From positions 90,942 through 154,941 of the forward strand of contig CAZKAT010000003.1 of the NCBI GenBank assembly GCA_964551135.1: a stretch of DNA of 64,000 nucleotides, given 5' to 3'. The first letter of the stretch is position 1, and each line of letters starts with the position of its first letter. The position numbers were made by a program, and so were the translations under genes. Shown here one piece after another: positions 51,048-63,924 of this stretch. This DNA comes from an uncultured Gammaproteobacteria bacterium. Lineage in GTDB: Bacteria; Cyanobacteriota; Vampirovibrionia; LMEP-6097. The notes beneath the pieces are model-generated. The model was not told the origin of the DNA and made no database searches. It worked only from the letters and a program-made list of their open reading frames with translations.

Positions 51048-51278
51048 ATGCCTGACTATATCTATATTTTCATAAATTCTTACTTGCCAATCTTAGTAGC
51101 TTTAGTTCTAGGTTTATTTATAGGCAGAATCACAAAAACCAAGAGTAAATCCTCAGTGCTGACCGGTTCTAGCGATGAACAGAAACTCAATAATGAAGTA
51201 CTTAAAGATCAAGTAAAACAGCTTGAATCTAAAATTAAAACACTAGAGAAAGCTTTAGAGATTACCAGTAAAAATTAA
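51048..51278 (+). CDS. small TM plus coiled-coil protein
   Basis: 76 aa. One TM (LPILVALVLGLFIG), then a heptad-like helical tail. Confidence 0.3.
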   Translation: MPDYIYIFINSYLPILVALVLGLFIGRITKTKSKSSVLTGSSDEQKLNNEVLKDQVKQLESKIKTLEKALEITSKN

Positions 51279-52093
51279 AGTCCAGCCCTTGGATGGAAGT
51301 CCTTATATGCCTTCGCAAGTCTATAATCTTGTTCTTTAACAAATGGTCTATAAAAATTACTTAGCTTAATAGCAAGCTTCTCTTCGATTTGCTCCAAGCT
51401 TAAACCTTGGTCTAAAAGATTCATAATCCTACTGCGTTTAAGGTAACTATGTTTCAATTCATAATTTTGCAAAATCTTAGGAATATCTGTTTCTATAAAT
51501 AATGGATCTTTCATAGTCATAGATTGAGTTTCTGGAAGCATTTTTGGTCTGTATTCTTTTAAATATTCTTTCATTTGCTTAGCTAGACTATCAGAAATCT
51601 CCAATCTAGTAGCTCGATAATTAAAACTATTACTCGCTAAATTATAATTTTCCAGATTCAAAGCAGTTAGTTCATCTTGTGAAAGATACAATTCATAAAT
51701 TACCTGAACTATTAACTGTTCATAATTAAATTCTGTTCCAAATCTATCAAAAATTTCGTTCTCTTTATAATAACTAAAAGCATCATGATTAAAGGAGAAC
51801 TTAAGCTTCCAAAAAGGGTTATTGTCCAAGTTCAACCAATTAATAAATTGACGTAAACTACTTAACTTAGAAACAAAACTTGATTCCATATATTTTTCTT
51901 CTAATTCATTTATATATCGAGTAATAAATTTAGCTTGAACACTGGCATCATCATTGTCTTTAAGATAGTCTATAAAAGCTTTAATATCTCTATTAATATT
52001 AGCTATAGTACCTGCTGACTTATTAGTACTCTCTTCCAAATACTGAATAAAATACTTTAGTAATTCTTCATTGAGAACGTAATTATTGTGCAT
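51275..52093 (-). CDS. tyrosine-recombinase-like protein (XerD-like N-terminal SAM-like domain; catalytic residues apparently degenerate)
   Basis: N-terminus LKYFIQYLEESTNKSAGTIANINRDIKAFIDYLKDN resembles the Xer/integrase core-binding domain. The region expected to carry the first catalytic Arg reads LSQDELTALNL, and the C-terminal HxxR/Y boxes are poorly conserved. Confidence 0.4.
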   Translation of the reverse strand: MHNNYVLNEELLKYFIQYLEESTNKSAGTIANINRDIKAFIDYLKDNDDASVQAKFITRYINELEEKYMESSFVSKLSSLRQFINWLNLDNNPFWKLKFSFNHDAFSYYKENEIFDRFGTEFNYEQLIVQVIYELYLSQDELTALNLENYNLASNSFNYRATRLEISDSLAKQMKEYLKEYRPKMLPETQSMTMKDPLFIETDIPKILQNYELKHSYLKRSRIMNLLDQGLSLEQIEEKLAIKLSNFYRPFVKEQDYRLAKAYKDFHPRAGL

Positions 52094-52292
52094 TAGTATT
52101 CTTATTTTTTTGAATTTCTTTTACTAACTCTCGAACATCATCATCAAGTCCATGCTTCTCAACAAACTTAACTATTAAAGGTGTATTCGGACTCCAGCCA
52201 ATATTAAGCAGATGACGCAAATGGTCCAAAGGGCCCATGTTCTTATTTAAAGTACTTGACTCTGCGTCTATAACTTCTTCTTCAGGAGGCAT
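52083..52292 (-). CDS. small hypothetical ORF
   Basis: 69 aa. Overlaps the start of the recombinase-like gene. Coding status uncertain. Confidence 0.25.
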   Translation of the reverse strand: MPPEEEVIDAESSTLNKNMGPLDHLRHLLNIGWSPNTPLIVKFVEKHGLDDDVRELVKEIQKNKNTNAQ

Positions 52293-52306: not shown

Positions 52307-52918
52307 TTACTTAGCTAGTTCAGCACCATTAGTGATCTGCAGCTTCTGCTTAATTTCTTCAAGAGTCATTTCTTTTATAGACTTCTCTTCAATAGATTCT
52401 ATTTCTTCCTTAACCTTATCCTCACGTGTTTGCGTTTCTTCAATTTCAGGAGCTTCCCATATTGATTCATCAGTAAACTGCACTCTCATGATTTCAACAT
52501 AGTAATAAGCATCATCTCTAAAAAACTTATCTTTTTTAAAGTGTATGGATTGCTCTTTACCAACCGGAAGGACATCAATACTATTCACCTCAGTTCTTTG
52601 ATCAACCCAGTTCTGGAACGGGAGCTTCAGAGTCCAAGCAACTCTATAAGCCATAATATCCTTATCACCAATATTCTTAACCTTCACACTGAAGTCATTA
52701 AAAATACCGGTGAGTGTCTTAGTTTTCTCAGAACCTTTATCAGCAACTTTAGCCTCCAATATCTCTACTGGTGCATCTGGATGATTAATAATTTTTACTG
52801 TTTGAATATGTTTCTTTTTAAATGGAATAAGAAACTTCTCAAACTCCAGAAAACTTTTAGCCGGTTGAGCTAAAGACAAGAAACAAACAACTATAACTAA
52901 TGGTATAAATTTTCTCAT
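52307..52918 (-). CDS. hypothetical secreted protein encoded immediately downstream of the secretin
   Basis: Signal peptide MRKFIPLVIVVCFLSLAQPAKS. Its start overlaps the secretin stop. Acidic helical C-terminus. Confidence 0.45.
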   Translation of the reverse strand: MRKFIPLVIVVCFLSLAQPAKSFLEFEKFLIPFKKKHIQTVKIINHPDAPVEILEAKVADKGSEKTKTLTGIFNDFSVKVKNIGDKDIMAYRVAWTLKLPFQNWVDQRTEVNSIDVLPVGKEQSIHFKKDKFFRDDAYYYVEIMRVQFTDESIWEAPEIEETQTREDKVKEEIESIEEKSIKEMTLEEIKQKLQITNGAELAK

Positions 52919-55152
52919 TAATATGTTGCTCCAGCTGCTTGTAAATAGACCTCTTCAACTTCATCTCCTGTTCTAATATTAGGAGTGATAAGTATTAAAA
53001 GTTCTCTTAAGTTTTTATTTCTTGAATTATTACCAAATAAGCTTCCAATAATAGGTATCTTACTCAATACTGGAATTTCATTATTTCTCGTGTAACCTTT
53101 TCTATCATCAAACAATCCACCAATAGCAATAGTTTCATGATTAACAATTTGAATCTCAGAAGATATTCTTCTTCTAACGGTTTGCTGAGGTACACCAGTA
53201 GTTGGATCTATAGTACCGTTAACCGATACTTCAACTTCAACCTTAACAGTTACTACTCCACCACCACCTACTATAGGAGTGATATCCATTGAGTTACCAG
53301 CCGTTACTCTGTTAATAGATTGCTGTTGAGCTGCAATAGAACCAGTTCCAATAGCACCAGCTTTATTTAAAACTACGTTTATATCTTGGTCAAAATTAAT
53401 CTTCGCACTCTTACCACTAGTTACCAAAAGTCTCTGATTAACTTTGATTTGTGCATTGTTATTAGTTTGGGAGAAAGTAGGATTATTAGCAAAAATCCCC
53501 ATGTATTTTGATCCTAAATTTACATTAAAGCCAGTTGATGGTGCCGTAGTCCCAGATCCAGCAGCAGTAACATTACCAATCTTACCTATAGTGAATGGAG
53601 TCTGATAGAGATTGTGTGATTGCGTGAAGTCTTTAGATATTTCTACTAATTTCACAACAAGTTCTACTTGTGGGATCGGCTTGTCAATAGTTCTAATAAA
53701 ATCATAGAGCTGAGTTAACTGTTGCTTAGAACCATCTGCAATAAAGGCGTTCTGATTAGAGCTAACTTGTACTAAGTTTTTTAATTCCGCTGGTAACAGC
53801 TTATTAGCTTCTTGTGCTTCCAAGTATTTAAGAGGGAAGAGTACAGTTCTACTATCAAGTGAGAAGTTCTTATTAGTAGAACTGTAAACAACATAGGTCT
53901 CTCCCTTCTTAGTGTAATTAAATTGGCTGCCTGCAAACAATAATTCAAAAGCATCATCTATATTTACTCCTCTAACTTTCAGAGTAATTCTATCAGTAGG
54001 ATTAGCAGTCATTACCACATCCACACCATAAGTATTAGCAAGGTCTTTAATGATACTTGATAAATCTTCGTTATCATAAGTTAAGTCTGCATATCGCTCT
54101 TCCAGCGGTAATGTTAAATCTATATCAGAAGTATCAAAACCCGCAATAAGACTAGTTCCTTTACCACCTTGTTTTTTAAGTATTGTGTAATTATCACCAC
54201 TTCTACGGAAATCTACATCAGCAGCATCAACTAAACTTAAAAATGCTTTAGTAAAGGGTTGATTATTGATTTCAACAACAGAGATAGTATCTCTATCTTG
54301 AACAGATCCGCTGACAGTTATACTTTTACCTGATACTCTTGCCAAAGTTGCAAAAGCATCTCTTGTAGCTATATTTCTTGCAGAGAAATTAACTATAGGA
54401 TCCTCACTAGGAGCTTGTTTTAGAGTAGCTTCCTTTTTAATCGTTCTCTCTCTTTTAGGAATTCCAACTATTTCTATTAACTTCTCAATCTCTTTAAGAT
54501 CTTTAGGATTCTCTGGATTTAAACCTGCAAGTAAATCACCATATTGTGAATATAATCTAGCAAAATCTTCTGGTGTTCTATCAAAAGTGTTAGCTAATTT
54601 GACATAATTTGTTCTTTTCTGTGCTTCTGTCTTCTCTAAATCACGTTGAGCTTTAGCTTTTAAATCAGCATCTATTTTTGCTGCATCCTCTGCTGACTTA
54701 GCTGCTAATGTAGTTTGAGTCGCAGTTGGTATAGTAGTAGTTGTTGTTGTTGTCTTAGCTGGCGTTGTTGTCTTAGCTGGCGTTGTTGTCGTAGTTGTTG
54801 TAGTTTTAGCTGGGCTTGATGTTGTTGTTGGCTTAGCAGGACTTACGGTTACAACAGGTGCGGTCGTTTTAACTGGAGTTGTTACTTGTTTCTTAACAAC
54901 TGGAGTATCTTCCTCTTCTTCATCGTCACCATAGAATCCATTGTCTTCATCATCCCAATCATCATCACTCCAATCGTCATCATCATCAGATGGTTTAGCT
55001 GCAATAAATGGAGTCTTCGCTAATGAAACTGCTGCTATTAATTCTTGTTCTTGAATCTTATAGGGAGTAGGGGTAAAAGAATTAGTTAGCGCAGGCCTAG
55101 CCATGCCAGATAATATTATTAATGCTATGGTGAGTGTTTTGATTCTGCGCAT
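52918..55152 (-). CDS. secretin (GspD/PilQ family) with acidic and Thr/Pro-rich N-terminal extension
   Basis: C-terminal secretin motif IPVLSKIPIIGSLFGNNSRNKNLRELLILITPNI. N0-like domain. Signal peptide. DDDDDWSDDDWDDEDNGFYGDDEEEED and a T/P/A-rich linker (AKTTTTTTTTPAKTTTPAKTTTTTTT). Confidence 0.85.
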   Translation of the reverse strand: MRRIKTLTIALIILSGMARPALTNSFTPTPYKIQEQELIAAVSLAKTPFIAAKPSDDDDDWSDDDWDDEDNGFYGDDEEEEDTPVVKKQVTTPVKTTAPVVTVSPAKPTTTSSPAKTTTTTTTTPAKTTTPAKTTTTTTTIPTATQTTLAAKSAEDAAKIDADLKAKAQRDLEKTEAQKRTNYVKLANTFDRTPEDFARLYSQYGDLLAGLNPENPKDLKEIEKLIEIVGIPKRERTIKKEATLKQAPSEDPIVNFSARNIATRDAFATLARVSGKSITVSGSVQDRDTISVVEINNQPFTKAFLSLVDAADVDFRRSGDNYTILKKQGGKGTSLIAGFDTSDIDLTLPLEERYADLTYDNEDLSSIIKDLANTYGVDVVMTANPTDRITLKVRGVNIDDAFELLFAGSQFNYTKKGETYVVYSSTNKNFSLDSRTVLFPLKYLEAQEANKLLPAELKNLVQVSSNQNAFIADGSKQQLTQLYDFIRTIDKPIPQVELVVKLVEISKDFTQSHNLYQTPFTIGKIGNVTAAGSGTTAPSTGFNVNLGSKYMGIFANNPTFSQTNNNAQIKVNQRLLVTSGKSAKINFDQDINVVLNKAGAIGTGSIAAQQQSINRVTAGNSMDITPIVGGGGVVTVKVEVEVSVNGTIDPTTGVPQQTVRRRISSEIQIVNHETIAIGGLFDDRKGYTRNNEIPVLSKIPIIGSLFGNNSRNKNLRELLILITPNIRTGDEVEEVYLQAAGATY

Positions 55153-56379: not shown

Positions 56380-57696
56380 GTGCGCTCCTTAGACTCTATC
56401 AATCCAAGAGAATCTGGCTTGAATTCATTTGATAAAAATGAATTCAGCCAAAAATTAAAAGACTATAGTGAGCAAAACAAAAATCCTAACTATCCAGAAA
56501 ATTATTTAAAAATTCTGGGGCTATTTTTATTAGGACGCTACGACGCTTTAGAGACTCTATTGTCCGAGGATCCAAGCTTAATATCCAGTTACCAAATCAA
56601 AGCTATAAAAATCCTAAATTTAATTCAAAGCAATAAGCCAGTAACAAACCAGGATATATTTCCCTTCAGCTCTCAAGAATTAAATATCCGCAAAAAAATC
56701 TCCAAGAAAATCTCAGCACATATTATTGATTTATATGATGCCATTTCTAAAAATATCAGCAGCATTCCACTCACTAGTGATTTATGGGCACTTAAACCCA
56801 TATTGCCAGAAATAGTTTTTTACTATGGGAAATATATTCTTGAGAATAAAATTAGCAATGAATATAAAAGATTAGAAGAAGAGCTAACTCAAGCTATACC
56901 ATTAACAGAAAACGATGAACTCAATAAAGAGAATGAATTAGAGCAAGTCTATCTTAGAACCTTTTTCTATAGAACCATAGGTGATGCTGCTCAAGCGGAA
57001 GCTGCTCTTTTAAAATATAGAGATATTTACAAACCAGTGGAGCAAGCTGCTCATATTAAATCACAAGCTAATACGACATTCTATCCGCCTGATCAAGTAC
57101 TAAATAATTGGGATAAAATTCTTACTGAAGCTGATGCCATTCAGAAAGAAGTAGAACGCAAAGCTGGACTCTTAAACAGCACTTGCGATTATTTCAAGTG
57201 CAGTGACTGTTGTTCTAATACTTTCCCAGTTATGACTTTAACTGAGTTTAAATTTCTAGAGCAATGGATGAAAGACAATAATTATCCATTAGAAAAAATT
57301 CAAGAACGTTCTGAATTAATTCAACAGGATTATGAAAAAAAATACGGTAAACGATTAACATTAATAGATAAAGAACTAGCAGAGAATGATTTTCGAGGTT
57401 CTGAAAATCCATACAATTACAAATTCTCTTGTCCATTTCTTGAGGGCGGCAAATGTTCTATCTACCATGCTCGTCCTTTAATATGTAGAGGCTTTGGCTT
57501 ATCCACCGATAATAATATTTCAGTAAAAACCTGCAAATATTATTTGGCACAATATAGGCATAATTCGAGTTTGGATAATGAAAGGTATGCCTACGATCTA
57601 CGTGCAGCAGAAATGCTGGCAGCTTCTAGTGATAAATATTTGACCGGTGCAGAACACCTAAAAGGTACGATAGTGGCGTGGTTTTCTAAGAATTAA
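56380..57696 (+). CDS. hypothetical protein with C-terminal YkgJ-type CxxCxxCC zinc/iron-chelating domain
   Basis: CDYFKCSDCCSNTFPV ... CPFLEGGKCSIYHARPLICRGFG. Confidence 0.55.
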   Translation: MRSLDSINPRESGLNSFDKNEFSQKLKDYSEQNKNPNYPENYLKILGLFLLGRYDALETLLSEDPSLISSYQIKAIKILNLIQSNKPVTNQDIFPFSSQELNIRKKISKKISAHIIDLYDAISKNISSIPLTSDLWALKPILPEIVFYYGKYILENKISNEYKRLEEELTQAIPLTENDELNKENELEQVYLRTFFYRTIGDAAQAEAALLKYRDIYKPVEQAAHIKSQANTTFYPPDQVLNNWDKILTEADAIQKEVERKAGLLNSTCDYFKCSDCCSNTFPVMTLTEFKFLEQWMKDNNYPLEKIQERSELIQQDYEKKYGKRLTLIDKELAENDFRGSENPYNYKFSCPFLEGGKCSIYHARPLICRGFGLSTDNNISVKTCKYYLAQYRHNSSLDNERYAYDLRAAEMLAASSDKYLTGAEHLKGTIVAWFSKN

Positions 57697-57757: not shown

Positions 57758-58513
57758 ATGGGTAATATCATGAGTTTATTGGGTGGTCTTTTCGGCGGCG
57801 GACAAGCTCCAGAAGTTAAACAACCAACAGCACCAGCGGCAGCAGTACAAACCGTTCCGCAAATAAACCCAGCTCAAGCAGAAACACAAAGAGCAGGTAA
57901 TGCAAATTTATTACAAACATCAGCGCCAACAATAGCAATACAACCTTTACAAACATCACAACCAGCAAATTATGATCTTGTGAAATTTTTAACTGACACT
58001 GGACTCAAACTCAATGAATTCAGAACAAATATGTTCGAGGCTAATTTATCTCAACTGACTTCAAATGTTCTAGATGCTATCAATGCAACGCTTAAAGCAC
58101 TAGGTGGAACCTTAATAGGGAAATTAGTAACACCTACTGAAAAATTAGCCACTCAGCAAACGCCTACACAAGCAGCTCCAACAGCTAGTCCTCAAGCAAG
58201 TGAAGCGGACTTAAACGAATTACTTAAATTATTAGGTGGCGGAGAACAAGCGAGTAATCAATCTGTAACTCCAATGCCCCAGACTATGGCTATTAATACT
58301 GGTGCTATTGGACAAGCTACACCACCACAACAAGCACCAAGTACAACAGTAACTGCCCCTGCTCAAACAACTCAAGCTACAGCTGGAGCAGAAATGAGTC
58401 CACAAGATATGGAAGCAGGTTTAAAAGCATTAATGGAAATGTTAGGAGGAGCAGGACAAGCTCAACCGGCAACAGCAACTCCTAACTCAACTCCTGCCCT
58501 TGCTAATAAATAG
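57758..58513 (+). CDS. low-complexity Q/A/T/P-rich protein with thrice-repeated L(L/M)GG(G/A)xQA motif
   Basis: MSLLGGLFGGGQAP, LLKLLGGGEQA, and LMEMLGGAGQAQ. 251 aa. A promoter-like TTGACA ... TATTCT lies upstream. Confidence 0.45.
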   Translation: MGNIMSLLGGLFGGGQAPEVKQPTAPAAAVQTVPQINPAQAETQRAGNANLLQTSAPTIAIQPLQTSQPANYDLVKFLTDTGLKLNEFRTNMFEANLSQLTSNVLDAINATLKALGGTLIGKLVTPTEKLATQQTPTQAAPTASPQASEADLNELLKLLGGGEQASNQSVTPMPQTMAINTGAIGQATPPQQAPSTTVTAPAQTTQATAGAEMSPQDMEAGLKALMEMLGGAGQAQPATATPNSTPALANK

Positions 58514-62539: not shown

Positions 62540-63160
62540 TTATTCTATAATTACCAATTTCTCAAACTTCGACGAAATAGCACTTCTGATCCGTTTATCA
62601 GTTACACACTTATTCAGTAATTCCTTAAATTTTCTCTTATTAAAATTTTGGCTTAAATCTAATTCTGGTAAAGAAGCAAATCTATTACCTTTGCGAGTTG
62701 ACAGATAAAGAGTATCAAGTAAAGCTTTCTCTGGACTTGCTATTAAGTAACTAATTTTAGAATTAGAAGGTGACCAATTAATCCCATCTAAAAATAGACT
62801 AGGATTGAGTTGTATAAACTCATAATTTGCAATTAAAGTTTTTAGTTTTCTTGGTCTACCGGTACTAGCGACTTGAATACTCTGAGGAATTTGAGAAATA
62901 ATTCCATGGCGATTAAGTGCTGATAAGAACGAAACGTAACCCTGCTCGTTATTTAATAAATAAGGAATCGCAGCAATTGGACTAAAATAAGAATGCCTAG
63001 TATTAGCCCAAACCCCTCTGGTTAATTTAACAGTTAGAGCTTTCGCTTCCAATCTTTTAAGATGCTCAGTTGCAGCAGAAATACTTAAACCGTTAAGCAG
63101 AGCATAATCTCTGGTTCTAAAAAAAATGAAATCTTCTGAGTTTAATATGTTAACTTTCAT
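62540..63160 (-). CDS. AbiEi-like antitoxin / transcriptional regulator (wHTH)
   Basis: N-terminal wHTH-like segment (DYALLNGLSISAATEHLKRLEAKALTVKLTRGVW) and a C-terminal domain. 4-bp overlap with the upstream NTase gene. Confidence 0.5.
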   Translation of the reverse strand: MKVNILNSEDFIFFRTRDYALLNGLSISAATEHLKRLEAKALTVKLTRGVWANTRHSYFSPIAAIPYLLNNEQGYVSFLSALNRHGIISQIPQSIQVASTGRPRKLKTLIANYEFIQLNPSLFLDGINWSPSNSKISYLIASPEKALLDTLYLSTRKGNRFASLPELDLSQNFNKRKFKELLNKCVTDKRIRSAISSKFEKLVIIE

Positions 63161-63924
63161 TTGCTTATTAGATTCATTACCCTATCTTGTATCTCCCTCC
63201 AAATCTCCTCTCCTGAAAATTTTTCTCGATCTTCCTTAGCAAGAAATTCTAGAACCTTGCCTTCATAATCTTTATAATTAATTGAAAGCAAGGCTTCTTC
63301 TGCTTTAGCTAGAACCTCCTTGGCCATTTGCTTTGACTTAAAGTTTTTAGTATGCCCACCAATATCCAATATGAAAATATCAAAAGCATCACGTGCTTGA
63401 ACTTCTTTTCTTCCGGCAAGTGCTTCAATCTTTTGAGCAAGAGCAGTGCTTGCATCATAATGCTGAGCTAAGTAAGAAAGCCTATTGTATTGTCTACTTA
63501 TTTCAGTATCTATTCTTTCCAGTGAATGCAAATAAAGTTTAAGATCTTTTTTTCTTCTGGAAAACTCTATCTTAGTTGCTAGTTCATCACCAGATTGGTT
63601 AATTATTCTGAAACGGAATCTTTGGGTAGTCTCTGTTTGCTTTGCCTTAGCCGGATCATTAATTAATACATCTCGAATACCATAAGTTTTTAATTTTCTT
63701 ATGAAAGTATCATCGTTAAGAATTTTATAGCCATTTTTCTTTAGAGTTGCTACACTACCAGCTAGTACATCTATATCCATATCTTCAGAATAGCGAGGAC
63801 TCTTGTAGTAAAAACGCAAATTAACTCCACCTTTAAGAATATAAATAGTAGGATCAGAAATCTTTAGCAATTGCTCTAGGAAGCAAAAATGAAAAATTTC
63901 TCTTAATTCTAAGTCAGACAGCAT
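63157..63924 (-). CDS. AbiEii/DUF1814-family nucleotidyltransferase (type IV TA toxin-like)
   Basis: N-terminal ILKGGVNLRFYYKSPRYSEDMDIDV, matching the DUF1814 NTase motif (KGGTAL...R.S.DIDF). Confidence 0.7.
   Translation of the reverse strand: MLSDLELREIFHFCFLEQLLKISDPTIYILKGGVNLRFYYKSPRYSEDMDIDVLAGSVATLKKNGYKILNDDTFIRKLKTYGIRDVLINDPAKAKQTETTQRFRFRIINQSGDELATKIEFSRRKKDLKLYLHSLERIDTEISRQYNRLSYLAQHYDASTALAQKIEALAGRKEVQARDAFDIFILDIGGHTKNFKSKQMAKEVLAKAEEALLSINYKDYEGKVLEFLAKEDREKFSGEEIWREIQDRVMNLISK

Follow-up and report, generated by a model that had tools for sequence, protein, structure and literature searches.

A conserved secretin gene cluster of Melainabacteria that lies apart from pilus and secretion genes and may encode a divergent PilQ/HofQ-type channel

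The secretin locus

The machine to which a secretin belongs is usually read from its operon, whereas the secretin gene considered here belongs to a family that is separated from pilus and secretion genes throughout a bacterial class. The gene lies on a 64,000-nucleotide stretch (positions 90,942 to 154,941 of contig CAZKAT010000003.1, assembly GCA_964551135.1; hereafter the window), and its relatives are found in Melainabacteria, the non-photosynthetic sister group of the oxygenic Cyanobacteria. It encodes a genuine outer-membrane secretin and stands second in a tightly packed chromosomal cluster that is conserved among relatives, where it is preceded by the gene of a zinc-ribbon protein and followed by that of a small secreted protein (Table 1). 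The rest of the window is occupied by housekeeping genes, e.g., those for ThrRS, MreB/MreC, the ATP synthase gamma subunit, MetH, Der and signal peptidase. An earlier inspection of the same DNA, made without database searches and referred to below as the sequence-only reading, had singled out the secretin as an orphan that might belong to a novel or mobile secretion module.

Table 1. Secretin gene, its predicted domains and the surrounding genes, in window coordinates. ORF, open reading frame; aa, amino acids; AF2, AlphaFold2.
Feature	Position	Strand	Basis
Secretin gene, 744 aa, apparent PilQ/HofQ-type architecture	52918..55152	-	ORF, Pfam, NCBIfam, homologues, AF2, Foldseek
Predicted signal peptide, residues 1-23	55084..55152	-	AF2 helix 2-17 and conserved A-x-[TSA] in the alignment of relatives
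Acidic D/E/W block, residues 56-82	54907..54987	-	Composition, 15-bp tandem repeat
Thr/Pro/Ala/Lys-rich linker, residues 83-150, predicted disordered	54703..54906	-	Composition, 18-bp repeats (PAKTTT units)
Three-helix domain, residues 154-229	54466..54693	-	AF2 and conservation
Extra N0-like (STN-like) beta-alpha domain, residues 253-327	54172..54396	-	AF2 and weak STN match
N0 domain (STN/FecR_C type), residues 355-424	53881..54090	-	Pfam, sub-sequence rerun, AF2
N1 domain (Secretin_N type), residues 435-489	53686..53850	-	Weak Secretin_N match, AF2
Secretin beta-barrel domain, residues 495-727	52972..53670	-	Pfam, AF2 long strands, Foldseek
Upstream partner gene, 360 aa	55202..56284	-	ORF, conserved position
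Downstream partner gene, 203 aa	52307..52918	-	ORF, conserved position, AF2
69-aa small protein	52083..52292	-	ORF, conserved in 27 closer-clade loci
272-aa XerC/D-like protein, degenerate catalytic domain	51275..52093	-	Pfam, NCBIfam, XerD alignment
CxxCxxCC (putative Zn/Fe-chelating) protein, 438 aa, divergent	56380..57696	+	PF03692 E 8.3e-7; 24 loci
76-aa membrane-anchored coiled-coil protein, convergent	51048..51278	+	ORF; same position in 20 loci

Domain organization of the secretin

The secretin ORF lies far beyond chance: 5.8 billion proteins were searched, and the approximately 98 close homologues (40-99% identity) agree with it over long invariant stretches. The Pfam family Secretin (PF00263) is matched at residues 562-726 with an E-value of 8.7e-31 (107 bits against a cutoff of 27.5), and the protein contains the motif IPVLSKIPIIGSLFG...LLILITPNI, so that the unambiguous secretin domain attributed to this ORF by the sequence-only reading is borne out. 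The N0 domain is recognized by STN (PF07660; residues 388-424, E 1.6e-9, 37.8 bits against a cutoff of 28.4) and, in an overlapping match, by FecR_C (residues 357-422, E 1.8e-9), an assignment that was reproduced on a sub-sequence. The N1 region gave a weak match to Secretin_N (E 0.002) when submitted as a sub-sequence, and PF03958 is precomputed for several of the homologues.

The AF2 model, predicted from a 71-sequence alignment, lays the protein out as a signal helix (residues 2-17) and a disordered stretch (residues 18-150), followed by a three-helix domain and by an extra N0-like domain, N0, N1 and barrel folds, all of them confident. The signal peptide is predicted from its sequence to be cleaved after ALT. 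The three-helix domain (helices 154-190, 194-208 and 216-229; predicted local distance difference test score, pLDDT, approximately 85-95) carries the motif LYSQYGDxLxGLNPENPKDLKEIEKLIEIVGIPKRER, strongly conserved in the family alignment, and matches no Pfam family even at E-values up to 10. The extra N0-like domain is predicted to adopt a beta-alpha-beta-beta-alpha-beta-beta fold (pLDDT approximately 88) and shows many invariant residues between F256 and T323 in the family alignment; its match to STN (E 0.002, 18.3 bits) falls under the cutoff. No AMIN domain was detected by Pfam at E-values up to 10, either in the whole secretin or in sub-sequences, the GspD-type N0 domain (PF21305) was not matched in the window secretin, and there is no S-domain, with 17 residues lying between the barrel and the stop codon. 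A Foldseek search with the whole model returned InvG, PilQ, GspD, pIV and RcpA with E-values down to 2.6e-21; as every secretin class is scored about equally, this comparison does not discriminate among the classes.

The acidic block and the threonine-rich linker

The poly-Asp/Trp block that the sequence-only reading had described behind the signal peptide is confirmed by composition: the 38 residues from 45 to 82 include 14 D, 5 E and 2 W, and the corresponding DNA contains a tandem repeat with a 15-bp unit at 54947-54984. The pLDDT of the block is below 50, hence it is predicted to be disordered. The adjoining linker comprises 31 T, 9 P, 7 A and 7 K among its 68 residues, with tandem repeats of an 18-bp unit at 54746-54813, so that the T/P/A-rich linker of the earlier description stands in its composition, while its length has to be corrected from about 50 to about 68 aa.

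The acidic block has the consensus DDWxDxDWxDDxxFYxDDEE in the alignment. When it is defined as at least 15 D/E per 30 residues, it is present in 59 of the 98 homologues and contains Trp in 56 of those, Phe standing in place of Trp in a few homologues. It frequently takes the form of regular DDEDW repeats, with a maximum of six in a row, and homologues of 500-650 aa lack it. Only 9 of the 98 have a poly-Thr run (at least 12 T per 40 residues), and the 99% identical homologue P0001 has 7 residues deleted within the Thr run. Because of these frequencies, the acidic-aromatic block is taken as a selected lineage trait, and the Thr spacer as a local, length-variable expansion. The N-terminal region is indeed unusual for GspD or PilQ, as had been proposed, in that it combines a disordered tail, a three-helix domain and an extra N0-like domain and has no AMIN domain. 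It is not an oddity of this locus, however, as such extensions are frequent among its relatives, a distribution that the sequence-only reading had itself named as speaking against its claim.

A second acidic tract was seen in the partner protein of two related loci (L015:11809-12834 and L023:2695-3729), where the counterpart of the 203-aa protein has come to end in a long acidic-Phe tail, e.g., DDFEDDDFDGFDFDDEDFEDFDE, which resembles the acidic-Trp block at the N-terminus of the secretin. A swapping of the acidic module between the secretin and its 203-aa partner was considered and rejected, since the secretins of L015 and L023 retain their own block and no clean Rosetta-stone signal is left.

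The conserved cluster and its proteins

A comparison of 42 related loci, with up to 10 kb of flanking sequence per side, revealed that the genes for the zinc-ribbon/K-E-R-rich protein, the secretin and the secreted beta-sandwich protein follow each other in this order down to a secretin identity of approximately 40%. In 40 of the 42 loci, the gene immediately upstream of the secretin encodes a homologue of the 360-aa protein, and in 38 the secretin is followed by a homologue of the 203-aa protein. In a closer clade (secretin identity of approximately 50% or more), the 69-aa, Xer-like and CxxCxxCC genes are added at fixed positions, the Xer-like and 69-aa genes being absent from the cluster of the more distant clade. 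HflX, an aminotransferase, an acyltransferase and Fe-SOD flank the cluster also where the secretins are 57-58% identical. The genes are closely packed: a gap of 49 nt separates the 360-aa gene from the secretin start, the secretin stop overlaps the start of the 203-aa gene by 1 nt (TAATG), 14 nt lie between the 203-aa and the 69-aa genes, and the 69-aa gene overlaps the start of the Xer-like gene by 11 nt. Given these tight junctions, and as no minus-strand terminator is predicted, the genes are likely to be co-transcribed as one operon. An Rfam scan found tRNA-His alone, with no regulatory RNA at the cluster.

Both immediate neighbours had been characterized correctly in outline by the sequence-only reading, namely as a zinc-ribbon protein with E/R/K repeats upstream and a small secreted protein downstream. 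The 360-aa protein consists of an N-terminal C4 zinc ribbon, a Lys-rich (AKK/KPKK), histone-H1-like segment, a long E/R/K-repeat helix, which is encoded by 27- and 54-bp tandem repeats, and a conserved C-terminus. In the alignment, its termini are conserved and its middle is variable; the zinc ribbon is invariant (CxxCG...YRPxSCRDCELERKxLYS), and the C-terminal motif reads RAPSxTPW..NFKIVxGxF...IIExIxxEHK. The protein is restricted to Melainabacteria, has neither a signal peptide nor a transmembrane segment, and matches no Pfam, NCBIfam or PHROG entry, while a chimeric query of its N- and C-termini returned a few unnamed fragments only. The 203-aa protein has a signal peptide, a beta-sandwich of approximately 120 aa (residues 38-158; core pLDDT approximately 90 in the AF2 model) and a charged C-terminal tail. 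It belongs to no Pfam, NCBIfam or PHROG family, and Foldseek found no PDB match at E-values of 1e-3 or below, only generic immunoglobulin-, ApaG- or RhoGDI-like sandwiches.

The gene further downstream that had been termed recombinase-like, which keeps its place behind the secretin cluster in 27 loci, encodes the 272-aa Xer-like protein. The term is justified as far as the SAM-like N-terminal domain goes, since Phage_int_SAM_1 (PF02899) at residues 13-87 is the sole Pfam match, and fails for the catalytic domain (PF00589), which was recognized neither in this protein nor in the relatives examined. The XerD, XerC and XerA models give 33-38 bits against cutoffs of 220-335, and a PDB sequence search yielded nothing usable. 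In an alignment to Escherichia coli XerD, Arg-I is replaced by Ser, His-II by Ile and the Arg of HxxR by Lys, and the XerD-like C-terminal FHPRA is retained. The protein is thus probably not an active recombinase, and it may be an inactive pseudo-recombinase or a DNA-binding protein. The 69-aa protein has no signal peptide and no Pfam or PHROG family.

Distribution in the Melainabacteria

The secretin is a vertically inherited, conserved chromosomal feature of Melainabacteria (Caenarcaniphilales and allied metagenome-assembled genomes, MAGs). Those homologues that carry a name come from MAGs designated "Cyanobacteriota," "Candidatus Melainabacteria" or "Caenarcaniphilales," and 36 loci were obtained from GTDB species genomes, namely MAGs of Melainabacteria, Vampirovibrionia or Caenarcanales that stem from lake, groundwater and ocean samples. 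Annotation of the homologues varies between PilQ, HofQ and GspD, with several being called PilQ or HofQ by PGAP/IMG and most bearing the IMG label "GspD/PulD." The family is isolated. As a stand-in for a phylogeny, its N0-N1-secretin part was compared exhaustively by HMMER with 1.84 billion cluster representatives; identity was at least 42% within the family and at most 33% outside it, and about nine of the representatives belong to the family. No PilQ of photosynthetic cyanobacteria was among the sequence matches of the secretin.

Two observations were made alongside. Some public MAG records that contain the melainabacterial locus are titled "uncultured Gammaproteobacteria bacterium" (e.g., CAZELI010000001 and CAYPGT010000056), which is probably a taxonomic mislabel. 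In a melainabacterium from groundwater, MAG nzgw192 (contig JAHFBF010000001; L042:9929-11251), a second, minimal secretin of 440 aa, consisting of N0, N1 and secretin domains only, is encoded amid haem-biosynthesis genes (ferrochelatase, HemN-like and URO-D), with no pilus or secretion genes linked to it at its locus.

Relationship to known secretins

Among the NCBIfam models, PilQ (TIGR02515) ranks first for the window protein with 102.5 bits, ahead of GspD (TIGR02517; 92.5 bits), HofQ (NF010083; 79 bits) and SctC (66 bits), all of these scores being under the curated cutoffs. PilQ also ranks first for all 21 aligned family members (best E-value 9.8e-39 vs. 1.1e-35 for GspD), and residues 352-726 align with the HofQ model from end to end (model positions 25-416 of 419). 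For ten of the nearest full-length relatives outside the family, PilQ is the best model in every case (194-284 bits, likewise below the PilQ cutoff), with GspD 12-78 bits behind. Of the 73 outside proteins closest to the family, nearly all carry STN and Secretin_N, and few carry AMIN. True GspD proteins (P0100-P0102) carry PF21305. On the basis of the scores of the outside relatives and of the domain architecture, the family is placed, with moderate confidence, nearest the PilQ/HofQ-type secretins.

With PilQ, including the HofQ/ComE "DNA uptake porins," the protein shares a barrel that follows one N1 and an STN-type N0 domain and that ends without an S-domain. It differs in having, instead of AMIN domains, the acidic-Trp block, the Thr-rich spacer, the three-helix domain and a second N0-like domain, and in that the family secretin, rather than being linked to pilMNOP, sits in another conserved cluster of proteins without assigned function.

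Pilus and secretion genes around the locus

The statement of the sequence-only reading that no cognate ATPase, platform or pilin genes flank the secretin holds for the window as well as for the 42 related loci. In total, approximately 84 kb of the 288-kb metagenomic source contig, ENA ERZ3430527 NODE_13, were inspected. Within the window, regular expressions found neither a PilB/GspE-type Walker A motif nor a prepilin motif, and the other ORFs of at least 100 aa encode housekeeping proteins or proteins of no recognizable function, with no platform protein of a type IV pilus (T4P) or type II secretion system (T2SS) among them. The 8-10 kb beyond each end of the window contain no pilus or secretion genes either. 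Likewise, no PilB/PilT-like ATPase or prepilin is encoded within 10 kb of the secretin in the 42 loci, as judged by phmmer with Pseudomonas aeruginosa PilT and by the prepilin regular expression.

Elsewhere in the class, only pilA/B/C/D/T were reported by TXSScan for a Gastranaerophilales genome, pilQ and pilMNO not being named (PMC5877343), which is consistent with a housekeeping pilQ that has been relocated. Full T4P gene sets were described for Vampirovibrio (PMC4451040).

Interpretation of the secretin

With moderate confidence, we take the protein most likely to be a divergent PilQ/HofQ-type outer-membrane channel that serves a T4P or competence machine, the inner-membrane parts of which would have their genes at another site. 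In such a machine, the secretin would assemble into a 12-16-mer pore, like other secretins, through which a T4P, or a competence pseudopilus with DNA, would pass; the PilB/PilC/PilT-type proteins driving it would be encoded in another part of the genome. The AMIN domains found in classical PilQ would be substituted here by the extra N0-like ring, the helical domain and the acidic tail, which would extend and anchor the periplasmic vestibule. The translationally coupled 203-aa protein could be a lineage-specific secretin accessory, similar to PilP, a pilotin or TsaP in its role and not in its sequence. A precedent for lineage-specific accessories is the PilQ of the Arthrospira "slime nozzle," which co-purifies with the cyanobacteria-specific protein NIES39_A07680 (PMC12475490). 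In both cases, a secretin from the cyanobacterial phylum would be combined with a lineage-restricted, non-canonical accessory; that of Arthrospira is a pentapeptide-repeat solenoid, whereas the candidate here is a beta-sandwich protein. A functional parallel would be an analogy only.

Several points weigh against a divergent PilQ/HofQ-type channel. The window protein is not a certified PilQ, as it falls far short of the curated cutoff of every family (284.35 bits for PilQ, 351.35 for GspD and 554 for HofQ); PilQ leads GspD by just 10 bits, and the phage pIV profile of PHROG scores comparably (108.5 bits). The AMIN domain that was not detected is typical of PilQ, albeit not universal. The pilM/N/O/P genes are not adjacent to the secretin in the window or in any of the 42 related loci, and to our knowledge this linkage is nearly universal for the secretins of type IVa pili and competence systems. 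The roles given above to the acidic tail and to the 203-aa protein are inferred. The secretins listed for Vampirovibrio chlorellavorus adjoin their ATPases, unlike the one described here (PMC4451040), and a literature search on pili turned up nothing specific to Caenarcaniphilales or Vampirovibrionia, the reports of T4P genes concerning Gastranaerophilales and Vampirovibrio.

The family could instead form, together with its conserved neighbours, a self-contained, Melainabacteria-specific envelope module that works without PilMNOP and possibly without a pilus, which we regard as unlikely. It would fit with the triad of upstream gene, secretin and downstream gene being kept in nearly all of the 42 loci while secretin identity falls from 99% to approximately 40%, with the overlapping or tightly spaced genes, and with T4P or T2SS genes being near none of the family members in these loci. 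The partners would fit as well: the 360-aa protein, conserved at both termini, combines a C4 zinc ribbon with a Lys-rich tract like that of histone H1, and the Xer-like protein keeps a DNA-binding, SAM-like core-binding domain without the catalytic Arg and His. As these two cytoplasmic partners look like nucleic-acid binders, a dedicated pore for DNA uptake or export is an option, and the end-to-end alignment to HofQ, annotated as a "DNA uptake porin," points in the same direction. However, synteny is no proof of common function, the functions of the partners are guessed from their composition, and the Xer-like and 69-aa genes are not part of the core, being missing from the cluster of the distant clade. 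The cluster encodes no inner-membrane component, i.e., neither a transmembrane protein nor an ATPase, hence it cannot energize transport alone, and we know of no secretin that works without an inner-membrane machine. In an extended form of this proposal, which seems a little less likely again, Melainabacteria would have replaced PilMNOP by a lineage-specific module that couples the secretin to the cell interior in a way not described before, possibly for DNA traffic. Such a module may consist of the 360-aa protein, the secretin with its acidic-Trp tail and extra N0 ring, and the beta-sandwich protein; in Caenarcaniphilales, the 69-aa protein may join it, as may the Xer-like protein in the role of a DNA binder devoid of catalytic activity.

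A comparably low probability is given to the secretin being the gate of a T2SS-like system, in which a pseudopilus would export proteins or an exopolymer without a surface pilus being formed, as in the slime nozzles proposed for cyanobacteria and myxobacteria. GspD resembles the window protein in its secretin and N1-type domains, and its profile scores are close to those of PilQ for the single protein and for the aligned family alike; GspD chains lead the PDB sequence matches (5wq7, E 6.7e-14), "GspD/PulD" is the prevailing IMG label, and PilQ/GspD-family secretins have been implicated in cyanobacterial polysaccharide slime secretion (PMC12475490). Against this stand the lack of PF21305, of N2/N3 repeats (a single N1-type domain is found rather than N1-N3) and of an S-domain, the lack of gsp genes near the secretin, and the lead of PilQ over GspD in each of the ten outside relatives compared.

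The novel or mobile module envisaged by the sequence-only reading, i.e., a filamentous-phage pIV-like or a Tad/integrative-element secretin brought in with the recombinase-like gene, is so improbable that it can be set aside, even though phrog_1012 (M13 protein IV) aligns to residues 355-726 with an E-value of 6.1e-31, pIV has a similarly compact layout of N-domains and secretin (N0-N3-secretin; PDB 7ofh, TM-score 0.66 normalized to the target) and 0.8 kb downstream there is a gene resembling those of tyrosine recombinases. Both the locus and the housekeeping genes that flank it are kept across a class-level clade, no relative of the secretin occurs in the 2.9 million viral contigs of IMG/VR, and the cluster neighbours have no match to phage families of known function in PHROG, so that a mobile or pIV-type origin is excluded for practical purposes. 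In addition, the chromosomal, vertically conserved secretin has a 350-aa N-terminal extension that is not present in pIV, no Zot/pI, coat or replication genes are found at the locus, the Xer-like neighbour is without a recognizable catalytic domain, and the GC content at the locus (0.346-0.377 in two 2-kb windows) lies inside the range of the whole window (0.322-0.420). As regards Tad, RcpA/CpaC is among the weakest PDB sequence matches (E 4.9e-6), no RcpA-type N-terminal Pfam or NCBIfam domain is matched in the secretin, and no cpa/tad genes are near it.

What remains novel, if the secretin is a divergent PilQ/HofQ-type channel, are the conserved, uncharacterized neighbours and the missing linkage to pilMNOP. 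Should the neighbours be true partners, new secretin accessory proteins would be defined, and this would help to explain why pilA/B/C/D/T alone, without pilQ or pilMNO, were reported by TXSScan for one melainabacterial genome (PMC5877343). If they are not, the outcome is a corrected annotation, with a divergent housekeeping PilQ in place of a mobile module.

Further genes of the window

Of the two genes that border the cluster on the opposite strand, the one for the 76-aa protein has homologues at E-values of 1e-4 to 3e-33, its matches to PspB/LapA-like proteins being weak. Beyond the CxxCxxCC gene, a 251-aa, Q/A/T/P-rich low-complexity protein with three "LLGG/MLGG" motif repeats is encoded on the plus strand (57758-58513); it has no family match and is weakly conserved in one relative (L007). 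A Fic-domain protein (PF02661) with a C-terminal helix-turn-helix-like region is encoded amid housekeeping genes (8421-9488, plus strand). Two gene pairs on the minus strand resemble toxin-antitoxin systems. One, at 3552-4236, is an overlapping pair of a Polbeta-type nucleotidyltransferase and a HEPN-like substrate-binding gene (PF08780) that adjoins ThrRS and is probably a toxin-antitoxin module. The other, at 62540-63924, is an AbiEi/AbiEii-type toxin-antitoxin pair, in which a 255-aa ORF is matched by AbiEii (PF08843) and the 206-aa ORF upstream of it resembles the AbiEi partner found elsewhere in locus L001.

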